Assembly (NCBI GenBank): GCA_041690135.1
Contig: JAWLHY010000003.1
Span: 576,001 to 640,000 of the forward strand
Direction: 5' to 3'
Source: Armatimonadota bacterium
GTDB lineage: Bacteria; Armatimonadota; SYMT01
DNA: 64,000 nt
Part shown: one piece after another, positions 17,847 to 25,840 of the stretch
How positions within the stretch are numbered: position 1 is the first letter of the stretch
Layout of the letters: each line of letters begins with the position of its first letter
Translations under genes and position numbers: made by a program
Notes under the pieces: generated by a model
The model's input: only the letters and a program-made list of their open reading frames with translations
Told to the model about the DNA's origin: nothing
Databases searched by the model: none

Positions 17847-18776
17847 GTGGAGATCACCTTCCGGCAGCTCCGCTATTTCCGCGCCGTGGCGGAACACGGG
17901 AACTTCACACGGGCGGCCGAGGCGCTGCTGGTGGCGCAGCCCACCGTCAGCCTTGCTATCAAGGACCTGGAGCGGGAGACGAAGGCGGTCCTGTTCGAGC
18001 CCGCGGGCCGCCAGGTGCGGTTGACGGCCGCGGGGCGCCTCCTGCTGCGCCACTGCGAGCGCATCCTGGGGGAAATGGACGCCATCGAGATCTCCCTGAG
18101 TGAGTTGTGGGGTGGGCAGGCAGGGAAGCTGGTCGTGGGGGCGAGCAGCACGCCCGGCACCTATCTGCTGCCCGAAATCCTCGGCAAGTTCCGAGCCGGG
18201 TCCCCACGGGTGGAAGTGGCGCTGGAGGTGACGGATACCGGCGAAGTGCTCCGCCGCGTGCAGGACGGCCGTCTCGACCTCGGGGTTGTCGGGGAAGCCC
18301 CCTTCGATCCGGCGCTCCACATCATGACCTTCCGCCGGGAAAGGCTGGTGCTGATCCTCTCCCCCGAACACCGTCTGGCCCGCCAGCGCTGGGTGACACT
18401 GCCGGACCTCTCCGGAGAGGCTTTTATCTGCCGGGAGGCGGGCTCCAGCACGCGAGAGATCGTCCGGCGCGCCCTGGAAGCACGAGGCATGGAGCTCCCG
18501 GTCACGATGGAGCTGGGAAATACCGAGGCGGTGAAGCGAGCGGTCTCCGCCGGCTTAGGTATCGCCTTCGTTTCGGAGCACGCGGTCGGGCTGGAAGTCC
18601 GGGCCGGCGTGCTCGTCACGCGAGAGATGCCGGACCTGGAGCTGACCCGCGGCCTTTACGTCGTCCGGAGAAGCAGCCTTCCCCTCACCCGGCTGCACGA
18701 GCGCTTCCTGGAGGTGCTCCTCGGCCATGGCGGGGTCTCGCCGCCGGTGCCGCCGGATGGCGCCGCCCCCTTCTGA
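17847..18776 (+). CDS. LysR family regulator, CysL-like subgroup
   Basis: HTH FTRAAEALLVAQPTVS; GASSTPGTYLLP; REAGSSTRE; EAVKRAVSAGLG. Confidence 0.92.
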   Translation: MEITFRQLRYFRAVAEHGNFTRAAEALLVAQPTVSLAIKDLERETKAVLFEPAGRQVRLTAAGRLLLRHCERILGEMDAIEISLSELWGGQAGKLVVGASSTPGTYLLPEILGKFRAGSPRVEVALEVTDTGEVLRRVQDGRLDLGVVGEAPFDPALHIMTFRRERLVLILSPEHRLARQRWVTLPDLSGEAFICREAGSSTREIVRRALEARGMELPVTMELGNTEAVKRAVSAGLGIAFVSEHAVGLEVRAGVLVTREMPDLELTRGLYVVRRSSLPLTRLHERFLEVLLGHGGVSPPVPPDGAAPF

Positions 18777-18823: not shown

Positions 18824-19258
18824 ATGGGTGCAATGCGTCCGTTCCTAAGCCACGCGGTGCGACTGGTCTTCTTACCGGTCGTGGTCCTTCTCCTGGGTTT
18901 CGCGCCCGGACCGTGGTATTGCGCCGATGGTTCTCCGTGCGCGGCGACCGCCGCCGCCTGCTGCTGCGGCTGTGCGGAAGCCGGGGGGACGGAGATCCAC
19001 GTCTGCGAGGACGCCGCCCCCGGCGAGGCGCTTTCCCCGGAAACCTGCGGCTGCTACCGGCTGGCGGTGGCGCCCGAATGCGTACCCGCGGGGGATCGCG
19101 AGCGACCCGACGTGGAGCCGGGCTTGCCGGCCCCGGTTGCGGTGATCGTCCCGCCGTTGCTGGTCGCCTCCCCGCGCGCTACTCCCGCCTCGGCGCACAG
19201 TCCACCTACCCATCTCATCTCCTCCGGGGACCCTCGCGGTCCGCCGCCCATCGGATAG
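18824..19258 (+). CDS. Cys-rich exported leader protein with C-terminal RGPP (DUF2946/arrest-peptide-like)
   Basis: N-terminal hydrophobic segment, WYCADGSPC...CCCGC...CGC, Pro-rich tail ending PRGPPPIG. Confidence 0.7.
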   Translation: MGAMRPFLSHAVRLVFLPVVVLLLGFAPGPWYCADGSPCAATAAACCCGCAEAGGTEIHVCEDAAPGEALSPETCGCYRLAVAPECVPAGDRERPDVEPGLPAPVAVIVPPLLVASPRATPASAHSPPTHLISSGDPRGPPPIG

Positions 19259-19333: not shown

Positions 19334-20254
19334 TTGAGAGCCTATGCAGTTCTGCCGGCCTTGTGGCTGGTTGTAGTATCTGTCGCGGCGCCGGGGCCCG
19401 TGCGCGCCGCAACCCTACTAACCGCACCCCGGATGGCCGTTTGCGCCGTCTGTCGTGAGGGCGAGGAGCCGGTGCTGGCAACGGCGGTCCACCAGGGCCG
19501 CGAGTTCACCTTCTGCAGCGAGGAGTGCAAGAAGACCTTCCTCGCCAACCCGGCCGAGTTCTTGACCCATTCCCCAGCCGAACCGAAGCCTGCAGCCCCT
19601 AACCTTCAACCTTCAACTTCCAACCTTCAACCTGCCAACCCTGATCCCGTTATGCCAAACCGCAGAAGTCCTGGAGGCTCTGCGGCTCCCAGCTGACCGA
19701 GTTGACCCGGTGAGGGAACCTCCGTGCGAGGTTCAGGAGATCTACTGGCAACGCGTTTCAACCTGGGTATCCGGTACATTCCGGACGGAGTGATCGATCG
19801 GGCCAAATGGCGGAACACCCTGATGTACCGCCTGAGCCAGGACCTGCAAGCGGGTGTCGAATACAACCCGCTGGCGGATGATGTCGGGCTACTGGTCAAC
19901 TGGCGCGCCCTCCGCGAGACGGAGAATCGTCCGGCGCTTTCATTCGGCACTTCGTCGGACCGGATCGGCACCCCCTACGGGCGGGCTTACTTCGCCACGC
20001 TTTCGAAGGACCTGGAGCCGCGCATCGGGCTGCCCGTCAGCGTGTACGGGGGCGTGCTCTGGGGCTCGTTCGAGGATGAGTTCGTCTTCCCGTTCGGGGC
20101 GAACTTCCGGCTGGGCAACCAGTGGACGTTCACCCCACAGTACGACGGACACGCCTCCCACGGGCTGCTCACCTATTCGTGGGATCGTTACAGCGTCAGC
20201 GGCCTGCTGATCCGCTGGCGCTACCCGGGCGTGGCGTTTAATATCGGCTTCTGA
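19334..20254 (+). CDS. Secreted YHS-domain/beta-barrel fusion, predicted selenoprotein with UxxU (U121, U124), 306 aa
   Basis: Signal peptide and YHS (CAVC...FTFCSEECKKTF). TGA at 19694 and 19703 are in frame with a barrel-like ORF that ends in Phe and has no signal peptide of its own. Confidence 0.7.
19716..19734 (+). promoter_or_regulatory. Candidate SECIS hairpin (YHS-UxxU gene)
   Basis: GAACCUC-CGUGC-GAGGUUC; loop begins 26 and 17 nt after the two UGAs. Confidence 0.6.
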
Positions 20255-20353
20255 ACCCGATCGGTGCTCTCTCTGACACGGAGGGACACAGATTGGACGG
20301 GACGGAACGCAGAAGAACACGGCGGGACCGAGCCGTTCGCGGGCGATGGGGTC

Positions 20354-20422
20354 ACCACGGAGCGCATAGAGACCACGGAGTGGAACCCCTTCCTTCTCCG
20401 AGGTCTCCGTGCGCTCCGTGGT
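20354..20422. repeat. ACCACGGAG...CTCCGTGGT REP-like inverted repeat
   Basis: Repeated (AC)CACGGAG units with reverse-complement copies between convergent genes; related units at 8753-8782. Confidence 0.65.
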
Positions 20423-20432
20423 GATTTCGTTC

Positions 20433-21320
20433 TTAAAAGAACGTCTCGAACGCAAACCGCAGCTCGTAGGGGTAGTCGCTGTGGTCCTGGGCGCCGCTGC
20501 GGGCGACCGGGACGAACACCCCGAACCGGAGCTGGTGATTGCCCTGGATGAACATCTGCGTGACGTGGAACCCGAACAGCCGGTGCCCGTTGTTCGCGTC
20601 GCGCCCGCTGCCCAGCGGGTCGTCCGCGTGGAACTCCCCGTGGATGCCGAAGGCGGTGTTCAGTCCCAGATCGGATGCCTCCACCTGCGGCTTGAACCAC
20701 CGCCCGTAAGCCGCGTCGAACATCAACATATCGCCCATGCGGAAGCCGCCCCCCACGTCGCGGTTCCAGACCACGCTGGCCCAGGTGGTGTCGTCCAGCC
20801 GCTCCAGGTCCCAGGCATACCCCAGCATGATCCCGGGATTGCCCGTCCCGGTCTGCGAGTGCGGGTCGAGGCGCTCCCCGGCGAGGCGGTGGCCGTCGTC
20901 GCCGGTGGGAAGCTTGATCCCATAGAAGATCGACTGCTGCTGATTGACGCCGATCTCCTGCCGCGCGGCGATCCGAGTCTTGGCGCGCAGGCTGAGGTCA
21001 CCCACCCCGGAAACCGTGGTGGAGCGCACCCCGCCTCCCGCCCGCCGCTCGTGGAGCGCGTTGTAGTAGGGGATCATCAGGCGGACGTTCAGCTTCGGAC
21101 TGAAGCCGTAGTCCACCATATACTCCTGCTCGAACATCCGCATCCGCTCGCCGCCCCGGCGGACAGTACCCGCGTCGAAGTATTTGAACTTCACTTCCGG
21201 GTGAATGACGCCAAACCCGAAGGTGATCGGCGTCTCCCCCCAGAGCGGCTCATGCGCCCGGGCCGGGGTAGCCCCAAGCAGCAGCGCCGCCAGGAGGCCG
21301 ATGCGTAGCATGCAATTCAT
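20433..21320 (-). CDS. Putative outer-membrane beta-barrel transporter
   Basis: Signal peptide with mature N-terminal His (A-HEP), SGVGDLSLR, GIKLPTG, QTGTG, C-terminal Phe. Confidence 0.75.
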   Translation of the reverse strand: MNCMLRIGLLAALLLGATPARAHEPLWGETPITFGFGVIHPEVKFKYFDAGTVRRGGERMRMFEQEYMVDYGFSPKLNVRLMIPYYNALHERRAGGGVRSTTVSGVGDLSLRAKTRIAARQEIGVNQQQSIFYGIKLPTGDDGHRLAGERLDPHSQTGTGNPGIMLGYAWDLERLDDTTWASVVWNRDVGGGFRMGDMLMFDAAYGRWFKPQVEASDLGLNTAFGIHGEFHADDPLGSGRDANNGHRLFGFHVTQMFIQGNHQLRFGVFVPVARSGAQDHSDYPYELRFAFETFF

Positions 21321-21332
21321 CGGATCGCCTCC

Positions 21333-21884
21333 TTATCGCTTCGGCCTCTTGTCTTCGGCGCCGTAGATCGCGGTGACCGCCAGGGAGCCCTTGCTGTCCG
21401 GACCCTGCGGATCGGGTTTCCAGAGCCCTTCCACCTCGACCTGGTCACCTACATGCCGGTTCAGCTGCACAGCAGTGTCCGGGTCCTCTTTCGCAGCCAC
21501 CACAGAGAGCGAGGTGGGGGATTTCATGCCGTCCAATTCGAGGAGCAATGTGTCTCCCCGTTTTACGACGGTGCCGGAGACGACCAACTCCACCTGGTCC
21601 TCGATCGGCTTGTAGCCGGCCTCCCGGATCTTCTCGAGCATCTTCGGGATCTCGGGCCAGGCACCGGGCTTCACCTTTACCTCCATGTGCGGAGGTCGAA
21701 GAATCAACTTGGATTGAGCAACGCCATCCAGGCGCTGCAGCCCCTTACGGAGCGTAATGCCTCAGGTCGCTCACGTGGCCCCTTTGATACCCAGCTTGAC
21801 GAGCTTGACATCGGCCAGGCCCGGAGAGGCGAGCAAGGAAGTAAGGGCGACGGAAGCCCCGAAGAAGAGAACCTTTCTAAACAT
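21333..21884 (-). CDS. Secreted HMA (MerP/CopZ-like) protein with C-terminal OB-like domain, predicted selenoprotein with UxxU (U38, U41), 183 aa
   Basis: Signal peptide, VKLGIKGAT-TGA(21773)-AT-TGA(21764)-GITLRKGLQRLDGV...IREAGY. This matches the HMA pattern GMTCxxC...L..L.GV...I..AGY. Confidence 0.85.
21720..21753 (-). promoter_or_regulatory. Two tandem candidate SECIS hairpins (HMA-UxxU gene)
   Basis: GCUCC-GUAA-GGGGC (loop 22 nt after UGA1) and AGCGCC-UGGAU-GGCGUU (loop 31 nt after UGA2). Confidence 0.5.
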
Positions 21885-21967
21885 GCGCAGTCGATCCAAT
21901 CCAGTTCCCGCGCCGGGAACAGTCACGCCGATCCATGCGGATGGCATAGGGAGTGGGGATGAAATGG

Positions 21968-22097
21968 ATGTTGTTGGAAAACCCACGGATGTCATGGGCC
22001 ACAGGACCGTAGGGAATGTGACGCCGTTCCATTCCGCTGGTCCGGCACTTGATCCCGTGGCGCCAAGAGTGCGCAGTCCGGGTTTCCCAACAGCAAC
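21968..22097 (-). ncRNA. Candidate structured 5' leader RNA
   Basis: Long closing stem UGCUGUUGGGAAACCC/GGGUUUUCCAACAACA enclosing GCACU/AGUGC and GGACC/GGUCC plus GGAAUG/CAUUCC stems. Confidence 0.4.
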
Positions 22098-22189
22098 CGT
22101 AAAGATCCCCTCCGGCAATCCTGACCCGCATCCCGGTGAGATTCCGGGGCGAAGGGCGGAGCACGCCGGAGTTTGGAGCAGTGGAGGGA

Positions 22190-22678
22190 CTACGCAGTGG
22201 GCGGGGCTCGTGATGGCCCCAAAGAGAGGAGCGGAGGCGGGCTATGCCCCAGCGGATCAGCGGGGCGGGTACCGAACGTCGCCGTCAGCAGAGGGGGCGA
22301 CAGGTGAGCCGGCGGCAACAAACCGTCGGGAGCCGACTCGGGGTGTGAGGTCGTGGAGGTTCGCAGCGAGGGCGCGGCCGGCCGGGAAGAGACGATGAAC
22401 CGGCAGTGATCGCCGGTAGAAATCTGGGCTCCCGGACCCGGAGGCGCAGCCGCCAGCCCGGGATACCGGCCATGTCCGCAGCGAAGTTGCACCGGTGAGA
22501 CGCAGCAGGAAGCAGCTTCTACCCCGGCGGTACGGTCGTCCTTCGCGCAGTGGTACCCCCGGCTGTCGGCCACGCAGGGAGTGCCGTCCGGGCAGGACCA
22601 GTACGCGGCAAAGGGTGCGACCGGTCCCAGGACCAGCGTCAGGATCAGCAGTATCGCCAGGAGCAGCCGTCTCATCAT
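22190..22678 (-). CDS. Cys-rich exported leader protein with C-terminal RAPP (DUF2946/arrest-peptide-like)
   Basis: Signal peptide, WSCPDGTPC...HC...SCC...C..HC, ends PSRAPPTA. Confidence 0.75.
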   Translation of the reverse strand: MMRRLLLAILLILTLVLGPVAPFAAYWSCPDGTPCVADSRGYHCAKDDRTAGVEAASCCVSPVQLRCGHGRYPGLAAAPPGPGAQISTGDHCRFIVSSRPAAPSLRTSTTSHPESAPDGLLPPAHLSPPLLTATFGTRPADPLGHSPPPLLSLGPSRAPPTA

Positions 22679-22883
22679 GGGTAAGCGAGACCGGAAAGGA
22701 TCCGTCTCTGCTTAACCATACGGCACCCTCGGTCCCGGCGTCATCGCGAACGTGACAGTCGCGGGCACCTCTTTCCGTCCTAACTCCGCTGAAGGCCTCG
22801 AGCGAGTTCGGACGATCCGCATCCTGGGAAATACGACTTTGAAGCGACTCGAACTGAGCTGCGGGAGTGGACTGGAGGTAGGG

Positions 22884-23585
22884 ATGGAACGGGCGCAATT
22901 CTGGAAGGGGCTCGCGATCGGGATCGCGGCCACCCTGCTGGCGGCCGTTCTGATCATGCTAGTTTCGCTAACGGTGATGAGCGCGAACCAGGATGCAGGT
23001 GGTATCCCTCCGATGAACGGCGCCCGGCATGAGGATCCTCCCACGCGCCGCGAGACGAATGGCGGGATGATGGACCCGGACGGCATGATGGGCGGCGGCA
23101 GGATGATGGACGGCATGCCGCCCTGGATGATGAGCCGGCCGGATACCGGCGCGGCGGGTGGCGGCCCGGAGATGATGCGGGACATGCGGACCATCCGCCA
23201 ACTTCTGACCCAGCATGAGAAGATCGAGCGTTACCTGTGGGAGATCCCCGGCGGGGTCCGCGCCGTGACGACCAGCGAAGATCCGCAGGTGGCCCAGGCG
23301 ATCCGCACGCATGTCCGCCAGATGAAGGAGCGGCTCGAGCAGGGGCAGCCGATCCGGATGATGGACCCCCTCTTCCGCGAGCTCTTCCGGCATCACGAGA
23401 AGATCAACATACAGGTCGAAGAGGTGCCGGGCGGCGTACGCGTGACGGAAACCTCGCAGGACCCACAGGTGACGGCGCTTATCCGCCAGCATGCAAACCG
23501 GGCCGTCTCCGAGTTCGTGGAGCGGGGCATGCCGCGGGCCATGGAGCCGACGCCGCTGCCGCCTGGCTATGAGACCGGCCGGTGA
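22884..23585 (+). CDS. Membrane-anchored Met-rich hypothetical protein
   Basis: One TM segment, GGMMDPDGMMGGGRMMDGM, two internal repeats (HEKI....IPGGVR..TSEDP.V...IR.H). Confidence 0.75.
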   Translation: MERAQFWKGLAIGIAATLLAAVLIMLVSLTVMSANQDAGGIPPMNGARHEDPPTRRETNGGMMDPDGMMGGGRMMDGMPPWMMSRPDTGAAGGGPEMMRDMRTIRQLLTQHEKIERYLWEIPGGVRAVTTSEDPQVAQAIRTHVRQMKERLEQGQPIRMMDPLFRELFRHHEKINIQVEEVPGGVRVTETSQDPQVTALIRQHANRAVSEFVERGMPRAMEPTPLPPGYETGR

Positions 23586-23617: not shown

Positions 23618-24700
23618 TCAGAACTGCGAGAAGAGCAGTCCGCCCGCCAGCCCCAACACCAGGACGAACAGGCCCAGGCAGGCCGCCGCGCGATAGGAGC
23701 CCAGCACCTTCCCCAGCATCCAGAGGGAGGGGAAGCTGACCGAGGGCAGCACCACCAGCAGCGCCACGGCCGGGCCTTCGCCCATTCCGGCCCGGGTAAA
23801 CTCCGAGACCCAGAGGACTTCCGTGAAGGTCGGGACCATCAGCAGGGTCCCGAGCAGGGAGGCCGCCGCGGTGGGCAGCAGCCCGTTGCCGAAGCTCCGC
23901 GCCACCGCTTCCACCGGCAGCGCGGTCTTGAGCAGCCCGATCAGGAGAAAGCCGAGCAGCAGCATCGGCAGGACCATCCGGGCGATGGCGGCGGTCTGGG
24001 CCAGCCAGCGAGCGAGCATCTCGCCGACGGAGGTATCCGGCGGCGGACCTACCGGACAGACTTCCTCTTCCTGCTTGCCCGGTATCAACCGGCTCGCCAG
24101 GTACGTGGCGCCCAGGGCAGCGGCCACTCCCAGAACCAGCCGGGCCACGGCCAGCTTTACCGGCAGCAACTCGAAGGCGAGGATGAGGGTGACGGTGTTC
24201 AGCGCCGGCGCGGTGACGAAGTAAGCCATGGCCGCACCCCGTCCGGCGCCGGAGGCCCGCAGCCCCGCGGTAGCTCCCACCGCGCAGCAGGAGCAGAACA
24301 TACTCGGGAGCCCCATGATTAGGCCCGCAAACTGCTGCCGGAACCCGTTTCCGCCCAGATGTCGCCGGATCAACTCCGGCAGAAAGGCCTGGACCGCGCC
24401 GCCGATGAAGAGGCCGAGCAGGGTCGCCGACCAGACCGCATTCACATAATCGACGGTGTAGAGGAACGGCAAGGCCCACTGCGGTGCGTGCTGAAGATCC
24501 AGCGAGAGCGGAAACTTCGTGCCCAGGGGAGTGACGTTGACGATCCCCAGCTTGTTCAGCAGTGAGAGGATGCGGTACTGGAACACCAGCCCGAACAACA
24601 CCGCGAAGACGCCGAACACGACCCCATTGCGCTGGCGACGACTGAGAGGGGTGGGCCGGACGCTCTCCGGCTCTGGCATGGGGGCTGCAAGCGTGGACAT
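23618..24700 (-). CDS. Predicted permease (DUF318/ArsP_1 family)
   Basis: Multi-TM; PSMFCSCC, YFVTAPALN, LPSVSFPSL. Confidence 0.8.
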   Translation of the reverse strand: MSTLAAPMPEPESVRPTPLSRRQRNGVVFGVFAVLFGLVFQYRILSLLNKLGIVNVTPLGTKFPLSLDLQHAPQWALPFLYTVDYVNAVWSATLLGLFIGGAVQAFLPELIRRHLGGNGFRQQFAGLIMGLPSMFCSCCAVGATAGLRASGAGRGAAMAYFVTAPALNTVTLILAFELLPVKLAVARLVLGVAAALGATYLASRLIPGKQEEEVCPVGPPPDTSVGEMLARWLAQTAAIARMVLPMLLLGFLLIGLLKTALPVEAVARSFGNGLLPTAAASLLGTLLMVPTFTEVLWVSEFTRAGMGEGPAVALLVVLPSVSFPSLWMLGKVLGSYRAAACLGLFVLVLGLAGGLLFSQF

Positions 24701-25123: not shown

Positions 25124-25840
25124 CTAACCGGCCTGGGCCCGCCGGTTCACCTCGTTCCAGTCGATATGGTCGAGGAACTTGCCGACGTAATCGCCCTTGC
25201 GGTTCTGGTAGTCCACGTAGAACGCGTGCTCGTACACGTCGCACACCAGCAAAGGCTGCCCGAACCAGAGCACACCGACCTCGTGGAGATCGCTGGCCAC
25301 GTTATAGAGCTGACCGTTTACGGCGTCGCGCGCCAGGATGCCCCAGCCGTTCGCCGCTATGCAGGTGGCCCGGAAATCATCCATCCATCGCTCCACTGAG
25401 CCGAACCGCTTCGTCAGGGCCATGCGAATATCTTCCTGAGGTCCTGCCTTTTGCGCCGTCATGTTCTCGAAGTAAAGCTCGTGGAGCACGACGCTGTTCG
25501 CCCGATTCACGCGGTCCTTCACCAGCAGGCTGTGGGCCGGCGACGAAAGCGGCTGATTTCCCTCCAGCATCTGGCCGAGCTGCTGCTCGTCACTCAGGAA
25601 TGCCTTGAGTGCGCCCCCGTAGTGGGCCGTGTGGTGCGGCGCGAGCTGAGCGCGCGAGAGGAACCCCGGCAGCTCGGCATAGGGCAGGGGCTTCGGCTTC
25701 GCGGTCACCAACCCCGAATTGGCGGGAAACGCTTTTCCCTCCGCCGCCTCCGCGGGCGCTACCTCGGCGACCATGATGCCGGCGGCGCAGCCGGCAAATC
25801 CACGCAGCACCTCACGGCGAACGATCCTGGGAGTATTCAT
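25124..25840 (-). CDS. Fe/Mn superoxide dismutase family (ChrC-like), Tat-like signal
   Basis: RREVL leader; HHTAHY, NSVVLHELYF, DVYEHAFYVDY. Confidence 0.85.
   Translation of the reverse strand: MNTPRIVRREVLRGFAGCAAGIMVAEVAPAEAAEGKAFPANSGLVTAKPKPLPYAELPGFLSRAQLAPHHTAHYGGALKAFLSDEQQLGQMLEGNQPLSSPAHSLLVKDRVNRANSVVLHELYFENMTAQKAGPQEDIRMALTKRFGSVERWMDDFRATCIAANGWGILARDAVNGQLYNVASDLHEVGVLWFGQPLLVCDVYEHAFYVDYQNRKGDYVGKFLDHIDWNEVNRRAQAG

Follow-up and report, generated by a model that had tools for sequence, protein, structure and literature searches.

Proteins in which selenocysteine (Sec; U in sequence motifs) replaces both metal-ligand cysteines of an HMA-type domain are already catalogued. The NCBIfam model NF041115 (UxxU_metal_bind), a genomics prediction only, describes such U-x-x-U proteins as a single domain of 74 positions. 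NCBIfam also holds a model for a MerT/CopZ-fusion selenoprotein, and a selenoprotein named 'Mercuric transport protein MerP' is listed in a table of the Global Ocean Sampling survey (PMC2398784). Here we describe a gene of an Armatimonadota bacterium, located on the minus strand of a stretch of 64,000 nucleotides (assembly GCA_041690135.1, contig JAWLHY010000003.1, positions 576,001 to 640,000; the whole stretch is referred to as the window), which encodes an HMA domain followed by an OB-fold domain (HMA-OB protein) in a frame containing two TGA codons at the positions of the metal-binding cysteines. Judged from its sequence, the product is an uncatalogued variant of the UxxU HMA selenoproteins: it scores 36.9 bits against NF041115 (23.3 bits in a six-frame search), compared with a cut-off of 95, and is thus not a member of that family, and it possesses in addition a signal peptide, an OB fold and a conserved barrel partner. 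In NCBIfam, Pfam and the papers searched, the exported HMA-OB architecture, the near-obligate Sec state and the pairing with a COG4313/FapF-type barrel were not found. Taken as a whole, the explanation of this gene as a selenoprotein gene with a role in metal handling appears to us likely.

A predicted exported HMA-OB protein encoded across two TGA codons

Translated with table 11, the gene extends on the minus strand from an ATG at 21884 to a TAA at 21335-21333, and its frame reads ...VKLGIKGAT*AT*GITLRKGLQRLDGV...IREAGY...; the TGAs are the only interruptions of its 183 codons, and no further stops occur. The two TGA codons (UGA1 and UGA2 in the mRNA) are spaced by 9 nt, and their context in the protein is K-G-A-T-U-A-T-U-G. 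The gene has the following features:

21333..21884, minus strand: predicted HMA-OB selenoprotein gene, 183 codons and TAA, with signal peptide, HMA domain and OB-fold domain
21813..21884, minus strand: predicted Sec-type (secretion) signal peptide, residues 1-24; hydrophobic N-terminus ending in ...SPGLA before DV, with a helix at residues 3-18 in the AlphaFold model
21609..21809, minus strand: HMA domain (beta-alpha-beta-beta-alpha-beta), residues 26-92, with the metal site G-A-T-U-A-T-U
21771..21773, minus strand: UGA1 (codon 38), at the first metal ligand; among the 21 family loci, 12 have U here and 9 have C
21762..21764, minus strand: UGA2 (codon 41), at the second metal ligand; every one of the 14 UxxU/CxxU loci has U here, as do the 2 Cx6U loci
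21357..21608, minus strand: C-terminal OB-fold domain, residues 93-176; all-beta with one helix in the model

Relatives of the gene were collected by six-frame searches, initially of 61 relatives and then of 401 phylum-sampled genomes, with a profile built from nine full-length members. The 21 matches spanning both domains were examined, and HMA-only matches in long P-type ATPase frames were not counted. A further search for related loci among genome contigs gave no relatives, and a metagenome locus cut at its N-terminus (L041) was left out of the analysis. The metal site of these loci occurs in five states (position 1 and position 2 stand for the first and the second ligand):

UxxU: 8 loci (window included)
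CxxU: 6 loci
Cx6U: 2 loci
UxxC: 4 loci
CxxC: 1 locus

Sec is thus found in all but one of the loci that the phylum sample yielded (20 of 21). The same two TGAs, in the same frame and with the same flanking residues, are present in seven other genomes, and the UxxU state comprises eight loci from eight genomes and four families. In the orthologs, in-frame conservation extends to either side of the TGAs, the signal peptide and the first beta-strand upstream of them are kept in every ortholog, and the N-terminal hydrophobic segment is conserved in kind across the alignments of full-length relatives. Among the CxxU, UxxC and CxxC relatives, each of the two TGA positions has Cys counterparts. Furthermore, a profile search of 1.84 billion representatives revealed full-length CxxC proteins of the same architecture (P0018, with 45% identity, P0019, P0023, P0026 and P0030). 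A word-indexed search of 5.8 billion proteins, on the other hand, returned 16 homologs, all of which are devoid of the N-terminal part, and seven of them start two residues beyond the position of the second TGA; this loss can be attributed to gene callers stopping at a recoded TGA.

On the poorly resolved maximum likelihood tree of the family, UxxU and CxxU forms are interspersed and at least four changes are needed for each, which would fit an easy flipping between Cys and Sec at position 1 combined with a fixed Sec at position 2. Two loci (L077, G017:C40; L078, G300:C23) carry the Cx6U variant, in which the site is widened to N-C-P-Y-G-L-A-G-U-W and contains one TGA. The homolog P0065 reads G-A-T-C-A-T-W-A, with Trp at the second site; it is probably a hidden CxxU member whose TGA was rendered as Trp by some pipeline. 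A second candidate for a double-Sec HMA-like gene was observed outside the window in the same genome (G000:C1:974600-974815, minus strand). Its product resembles a lipoprotein (signal ending in ...FVGC). The motif is G-M-H-U-P-A-G-U, in which three residues separate the two Sec positions, and a GC-rich hairpin overlaps and trails the UGAs.

The genome that contains the window (G000; 9.1 Mb, 25 contigs, 97% complete) encodes the machinery for Sec synthesis and insertion. Besides selB (G000:C8:51343-53220; 383.6 bits, cut-off 242), there is a selA-selD-tRNA-Sec cluster on contig C1 with scores of 566.6 bits for selA, 369.6 bits for selD and 67.2 bits for tRNA-Sec, the last being confirmed by ARAGORN (anticodon tca); all four exceed the curated cut-offs. 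The genome also has known selenoprotein genes, each interrupted by one in-frame TGA, namely fdhA (993.8 bits), a Trx7/PDZ gene (387.5 bits) and selD. The latter is thus a selenoprotein gene itself (G-G-U-A-S-K; G000:C1:1150877-1151803, outside the window). Bacterial selenoproteins are recognized in the field by Cys/Sec pairs, conserved flanks, a SECIS-type (selenocysteine insertion sequence) hairpin and Sec machinery (PMC13188914), and for the window gene Cys/Sec pairs, orthologs with the same TGAs, a hairpin and the Sec machinery were all found. On this comparative sequence evidence, the HMA-OB frame is a genuine selenoprotein gene that is shortened by standard annotation. We have little doubt that both UGAs would be read as selenocysteine by SelA, SelB, SelD and tRNA-Sec, giving a real double-Sec protein.

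The metal site and the second domain

The single HMA-OB sequence scores 24.7 bits (E 3.2e-5) with the Pfam HMA family (PF00403), whose gathering cut-off is 24.8, and of 25 family members, 22 reach E<=0.01 with PF00403, the lowest value being 1.6e-12. Searched against PDB, the family profile retrieved B. subtilis CopA (1p6t_A, a two-domain chain; E 1.9e-24), MerP (1afi_A; 2.6e-9) and CopZ (6ff2_A; 2.9e-9), and its two Sec columns align onto the GMTCxxC cysteines of all three. The AlphaFold model of the HMA-OB protein (mean pLDDT, the predicted local distance difference test, 85.4) contains strands at residues 26-34, 55-62 and 65-71, helices at 40-50 and 79-88, and a further strand from 92 on, and U38 and U41 are located at the junction of strand 1 and helix 1, as in the HMA fold. 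In Foldseek, the HMA domain superimposes on CopZ (6ff2_A) over 67 columns with a target-normalized TM-score (TMt) of 0.88 and a root-mean-square deviation of 1.6 A; for MerP (1osd_A), the TMt is 0.76.

The Foldseek matches of the C-terminal domain are the anticodon-binding domains of Asp- and Lys-tRNA synthetases and PriB. No Pfam family was assigned to this domain in the window protein, and DUF5818 was found in 3 of the 25 relatives. The only invariant residues of the OB domain across the wider family are G104 and G153; for this reason, a second metal site is not suggested.

All elements described in the original prediction, which was made from the DNA letters without database searches, are present where it had placed them. 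Its exported HMA domain is supported by the profile matches to solved HMA domains and by the superposition on CopZ, along with the Pfam score; in the comparison with PF00403, which it had proposed as a check, the single sequence came out 0.1 bit below the gathering value. The second domain it noticed is an OB fold according to the model and Foldseek. It had also placed both TGAs at the two metal-binding cysteines and considered two nonsense mutations at exactly these codons improbable. Homologs with all four states (UxxU, CxxU, UxxC and CxxC), whose tabulation had been proposed, agree with this placement, and the recurrence of the TGA pair in seven other genomes puts it beyond chance.

Two hairpins follow the UGA codons

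Two hairpins are located directly downstream of the UGAs:

21740..21753, minus strand: hairpin A, 5 bp, loop GUAA, -8.4 kcal/mol; distance to the start of the loop 22 nt from UGA1, 13 nt from UGA2
21718..21738, minus strand: hairpin B, 8 bp, loop UGGAU, -15.3 kcal/mol; distance to the start of the loop 31 nt from UGA2, 40 nt from UGA1

The UGA region is modestly more stable than its dinucleotide shuffles (z -1.8 to -2.7). An Rfam scan of 21200-22000 at E<=10 returned one chance miRNA match and nothing else; to our knowledge, there is no curated Rfam model for bacterial SECIS of this type. For comparison, 78 nt around the motif were folded from 19 loci, i.e., from all but the two Cx6U loci. A hairpin at the A position was found in all 18 Sec-containing UxxU, CxxU and UxxC loci (-6.8 to -13.8 kcal/mol). 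The start of its loop is 21-22 nt away from position 1 (17 in locus L061) and 12-13 nt away from position 2 (8 in L061), and the hairpin persists through three pairing registers and differing peptides (RK, KR, DK, EK, KK, NK, VK); in L049 the stem has a wholly different sequence. Hairpin B was present in all 14 UxxU/CxxU loci, i.e., those with Sec at position 2 (-6.4 to -15.3 kcal/mol), with the loop starting 31-32 nt past this position. Nothing comparable was found in the four UxxC loci and the CxxC locus (-0.4 to -5.4 kcal/mol), so hairpin B is seen only where position 2 is Sec. The two Cx6U loci, inspected separately, show in their folds a hairpin with the core sequence of hairpin B about 32 nt past their single TGA.

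Both hairpins were compared with synonymous recodings (500 per folded segment, with the codon usage of G000 applied to all genomes). Hairpin A exceeded its recodings in stability (p<=0.05) in 12 of the 14 UxxU/CxxU loci, and hairpin B did so in 8 of them. The corresponding p values in the other loci were 0.59-0.98 for B (UxxC and CxxC) and, for A, 0.06-0.34 in UxxC and 0.43 in CxxC. On the ungapped alignment of the 14 sequences, 83.7% of the cells can pair, compared with 33-47% in slid controls, and none of 500 column shuffles reached this value; this count underestimates hairpin A, which occurs in three registers and has no single column register. Pair 41-57 of hairpin B is AU in eight, CG in three and GC in two sequences, and in this covariation the third position of a Val codon, a synonymous site, tracks a non-synonymous change six codons upstream. 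Folding of the same segments of five CxxC HMA domains of G000 gave -1.7 to -5.8 kcal/mol for A and -0.6 to -11.2 kcal/mol for B (vs. -8.4 and -15.3 for the window gene), a control of n=5 in which the margin for B is not large. The two tandem hairpins of the original prediction are thus both present and conserved. Of the covariation test proposed for them, the part concerning B yielded compensatory changes, and A could not be scored in one register.

The published rule for bacterial SECIS elements asks for 3-9 nt in the loop, with a G among the first two of them, 4-16 bp in the stem, a distance of 16-37 nt from UGA to loop and a minimum free energy of <= -7.5 kcal/mol (PMC13188914, legend of Fig. 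2). By this rule, hairpin A fits UGA1 (22 nt) and not UGA2 (13 nt), whereas hairpin B fits UGA2 (31 nt) and not UGA1 (40 nt). The distances in the reference genes of G000 are 18 nt for fdhA (loop GGUCU), 25 nt for the Trx7/PDZ gene (AGGUG) and 33 nt for selD (GUG). The position-1 UGA of the UxxC relatives is followed by a hairpin at the A position and by no hairpin B. Hairpin B would accordingly be assigned to the decoding of UGA2, and the codon most likely served by hairpin A would be UGA1. We consider it likely that B is the SECIS of UGA2; for the service of A to UGA1, the arguments for and against (see below) are evenly balanced in our view. Two conserved hairpins behind adjacent bacterial UGAs (tandem SECIS) were not found in the literature searched, including PMC9312934, PMC13188914, PMC2398784, PMC10778597 and bioRxiv 10.1101/2022.07.06.499078.

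The barrel partner and the genomic neighborhood

The genes and sites around the HMA-OB gene are as follows:

21321..21332, minus strand: 12-nt spacer with AGGAGG before the ATG of the barrel gene, read from the sequence
20433..21320, minus strand: gene for an outer-membrane 12-strand beta-barrel, 295 aa (model pLDDT 93.5)
20336-20319, minus strand: terminator-like site, about 100 nt past the end of the barrel gene
22190..22678, minus strand: secreted Cys-rich protein, 162 aa, without family; possibly a further member of the module
23618..24700, minus strand: ArsP-type inner-membrane permease with a C-S-C-C motif (Pfam ArsP_1, 101.8 bits); context only
19334..19696, plus strand: YHS-domain (metal-binding) protein (Pfam YHS, 33.4 bits) in a convergent neighboring unit; context only
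19724-20254, plus strand: 176-aa protein without family, with a barrel-like C-terminus ending in F, after the YHS gene

The gap of 12 nt holding an AGGAGG implies that the HMA-OB and barrel genes are co-transcribed. A sigma-70 promoter scan of 20200-22800 gave no sites; neither this nor the terminator-like site enters our argument. The barrel has no Pfam or NCBIfam match at E<=1. Its model resembles FapF (5o67; E 1e-11, TM 0.68) and the COG4313 channel 4rl8_A (E 1.1e-8, query-normalized TM-score, TMq, 0.62) in Foldseek, a precomputed PF13557 match exists for 4 of the 93 listed barrel proteins (92 homologs and the query), and its neighbors in the Atlas are PF13557 clusters at 0.98. The closest named homologs are proteins of Armatimonadota metagenome-assembled genomes.

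The distribution of the barrel was analyzed by tblastn in 18 other family loci (L077 and L078 not included). In all 13 other UxxU/CxxU loci, a barrel homolog adjoins the HMA gene on the same strand. It is located upstream of the HMA gene in 12 loci (in L046 with a partial match of 37 residues only) and downstream in L044, as in the window; the genes upstream of the HMA gene in L023, L024 and L025 share the terminal motif of the window barrel. No barrel homolog was found at E<=1e-3 in the four UxxC loci or the CxxC locus. The pairing has outlived a change of gene order, which argues for a functional coupling of the HMA-OB protein and the barrel. The barrel starting 12 nt downstream, which had been noticed in the original prediction, thus has its ATG at 21320 confirmed and proves to be a conserved neighbor. 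Residues 23-31 of the barrel, H-E-P-L-W-G-E-T-P, form its mature N-terminus and are invariant or nearly so in 30 aligned homologs. The His would be the first residue after the predicted signal cleavage, and the segment may bind metal or act as a plug.

Homologs of the 162-aa Cys-rich protein are present beside the HMA gene in 4 of the 18 other loci (L044, L045, L056 and L052; tblastn). A second secreted Cys-rich protein without family is encoded at ~18824-19258 (plus strand), and one of the two contains an A-A-C-C-C-G-C run. Paralogy of these two proteins was considered and rejected, as only an eight-residue W-x-C-x-D-G-x-P motif matches (E 0.25). YHS homologs occur near the HMA-barrel pair in L045 and L047, and a homolog of the 176-aa open reading frame (ORF) in L047. 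The permease scores 72.4 bits with the NCBIfam model for SO_0444 Cu/Zn efflux (cut-off 300) and 51.3 bits with SaoE; the CSC motif has been discussed for the ArsP/SO_0444-type family, and a Sec form (U-S-C) has been described (bioRxiv 10.1101/2022.07.06.499078). The permease and Cys-rich genes are separated by a gene of the other strand (22752-23585, plus strand), which encodes a Met-rich protein. This protein starts with a membrane or signal segment, contains runs such as GGMMDPDGMMGGGRMMDGMPPWMM and gave no family match above any cut-off. A Fe/Mn superoxide dismutase is encoded at 25124-25840 (minus strand); it has a long N-terminal extension, and only its C-terminal domain, Sod_Fe_C, was matched, from residue 135.

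Proposed function

The product would be a Sec-exported protein of about 159 residues, export being suggested by its signal-like N-terminus, in which the HMA domain carries the selenolate ligands U38-x-x-U41 and is followed by the OB fold. In the periplasm, it would bind a soft thiophilic metal, i.e., Cu(I)/Ag(I) or Hg(II), and pass the ion to, or take it from, the co-transcribed 12-strand outer-membrane channel, thus forming one leg of an envelope metal route. The OB domain could serve as a docking module for the barrel, and the route may also include the ArsP/SO_0444-like permease, the YHS protein and the secreted proteins rich in Cys or Met. Copper is the metal towards which the YHS, SO_0444-like and Met-rich neighbors make us lean. 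A metal carrier that works with the barrel is the option we favor, if only slightly; the protein may be a high-affinity diselenol chaperone in physical cooperation with the barrel, as the original prediction proposed.

Points against the proposal and alternative explanations

Several points weigh against this interpretation or parts of it. The single HMA-OB sequence stays 0.1 bit below the gathering score of Pfam HMA, and the best Foldseek E-values for the HMA-OB model are only ~1e-3. The family tree is poorly resolved, with one of 18 inner branches well supported, and the supported branches force at most one change between the UxxU and CxxU forms. Hairpin B passed the recoding test in only 8 of the 14 loci, and this with the codon usage of G000 imposed on other genomes. 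Part of its core (CGCC...GGCG) is explained by the preferred codons for a conserved R-L-[DE]-G-V peptide, so that the covariation of the lower stem is the more telling signal. No mer or cop operon genes were found among the 15 neighboring ORFs scanned against Pfam. In the oxidizing periplasm, the two Sec of a UxxU site may be joined in a diselenide, which would have to be reduced, or opened by the metal, before an ion could be bound. The remaining points concern the assignment of hairpin A. It is kept, with a G-first loop, in all six CxxU genes, which have no UGA1; the A loops of three of the eight UxxU genes (AAGC in L023, AAAAA in L050 and AAUAA in L054) do not have the required G; and the single-Sec selD gene of G000 is itself followed by two hairpins, a small one 15 nt and the main one 33 nt past its UGA. 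A dedicated assignment of A to UGA1 is for these reasons not established. The original suggestion of possibly one hairpin per UGA agrees with the spacing.

Alternatively, A and B could form one composite SECIS unit of UGA2, with UGA1 decoded via B at 40 nt and A acting as an accessory (a spacer or pause site). Both hairpins are indeed present in the six single-Sec CxxU genes, all 14 B loops carry a G among their first two nucleotides, as opposed to the A loops just mentioned, and the two selD hairpins (15 and 33 nt) mirror A and B as seen from UGA2 (13 and 31 nt). However, the selD parallel is a single case, the gap of 40-41 nt between UGA1 and B exceeds both the published 16-37 nt (PMC13188914) and the 18-33 nt of the three G000 genes, and the UxxC relatives, which have no B, read the UGA of position 1 with a hairpin located like A (at 22 nt, or 17 nt in L061). 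We regard the composite unit as possible but on balance doubtful. Combining these arguments, we infer that hairpin A may be an older, proximal element of the UGA2 unit, lies by coincidence at a SECIS-compatible distance from position 1, and would probably act on UGA1 in genes with Sec there. Our preferred reading of dedicated hairpins can be extended to a fuller scheme, which we put forward only tentatively: each UGA would be read through its own hairpin; A would have been inherited from the SECIS unit of a single-Sec ancestor and would permit repeated exchanges of Cys and Sec at the first ligand, the Sec of position 2 being fixed by B; and the product would be a periplasmic shuttle of an undescribed selenium-based soft-metal route with a COG4313/FapF-type channel.

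Other explanations concern the nature of the product. Instead of binding metal, the UxxU site could be redox-active, the protein being a periplasmic diselenide/selenol redox protein, or it could carry S(0)/Se(0)-type species that are delivered to the outer-membrane channel or received from it. Diselenides form easily in an oxidizing compartment, and FapF and COG4313, the fold relatives of the barrel, are not known as metal channels; moreover, most catalogued bacterial UxxC, CxxU and UxxU selenoproteins are redox proteins, according to the review tables of PMC9312934 and PMC13188914. We nevertheless consider such a function unlikely, because fold and profile of the N-terminal domain are those of HMA and not thioredoxin-like, its site aligns residue by residue with the GMTCxxC of CopA, MerP and CopZ, and the neighbors (YHS domain, ArsP/SO_0444-like permease, Met-rich protein) are metal-related. 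That the gene is a decaying pseudogene, or that the real product starts past the second TGA and both TGAs are ordinary stops, would agree with the gene callers, which let all 16 database homologs begin beyond the TGAs, and with the longest table 11 ORF of 124 aa from a TTG at 21707. A product of this kind would, however, be devoid of the signal peptide, strand 1 and the metal site, whereas signal peptide and first strand are conserved in frame upstream of the TGAs, the same two TGAs recur in 8 loci of 8 genomes and 4 families, forms with a single or no TGA carry Cys at exactly these codons, and conserved hairpins trail the UGAs. In-frame conservation, recurring TGAs and Cys counterparts together strongly disfavor the pseudogene, and we consider this explanation, in either version, very improbable. 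Least probable of all in our judgement is a genome-wide or local change of the code with TGA read as Trp, Gly or Cys, as the Trp at the second site of P0065 (GATCATWA) might suggest. TGA is an ordinary stop in the window, where the LysR gene (17847-18776) and the Met-rich gene end on it, in-frame TGAs are confined to Cys-equivalent sites, and G000 has a complete Sec system along with the fdhA, Trx7/PDZ and selD selenoprotein genes. An altered genetic code is therefore not the explanation that we adopt.

Discussion

If the HMA-OB protein is a selenoprotein as proposed, the family is an example of a metal-handling capacity that is under-read in annotation, given that it nearly always contains Sec in the phylum sample (20/21) and that every close database entry is truncated. 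Few metal-binding proteins based on Sec have been predicted so far, and the family extends them by an exported variant with two domains that is coupled to a barrel. In its barrel-adjacent UxxU/CxxU branch, the second ligand is always Sec and the first alternates between Sec and Cys. The gene also offers a compact natural system for studying the SelB/SECIS-dependent decoding of two UGAs 9 nt apart, for which natural single-UGA comparators exist. Furthermore, it would tie a COG4313/FapF-type channel to metal traffic, and Cys-form homologs are available for comparison.

The barrel shares with the COG4313/Phenol_MetA_deg channels of PF13557 (4rl8) and with FapF (5o65, 5o67) the 12-strand fold (TM 0.62-0.68). 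It differs from them in having no Pfam match of its own and in its conserved mature N-terminus H-E-P-L-W-G-E-T-P. A link of these channels to metals or selenoproteins was not found in the literature searched.

For the soluble partner, the best matches in structure and profile are the CopZ/Atx1 chaperones and the HMA domains of CopA/ATP7B (6ff2, 1p6t, 7xuk), which have the same geometry of the metal site. These proteins are, however, cytoplasmic and Cys-based, and their single or tandem HMA domains serve P-type ATPases. In concept, the HMA-OB protein resembles CusF, the periplasmic OB-fold chaperone for Cu(I)/Ag(I) that feeds the envelope exporter CusCBA: it too would be a small periplasmic soft-metal carrier with an OB fold that is tied to an outer-membrane exit. 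CusF is nevertheless not among the top Foldseek matches, and the OB domain of the window protein has no conserved Met/His site, its metal site being on the HMA domain. MerP (TIGR02052; 1afi, 1osd) is likewise an exported HMA protein with a GxTCxxC-type site, and it is the best NCBIfam match of the window protein (39.1 bits). With a cut-off of 92.55, the window protein is not a member of this family either; it has the extra OB domain, and merT, merA and merR are not present among the 15 neighboring ORFs scanned. MerP is paired with the inner-membrane protein MerT and the window protein with an outer-membrane barrel, and the window protein would, like MerP, hand metal to its membrane partner.

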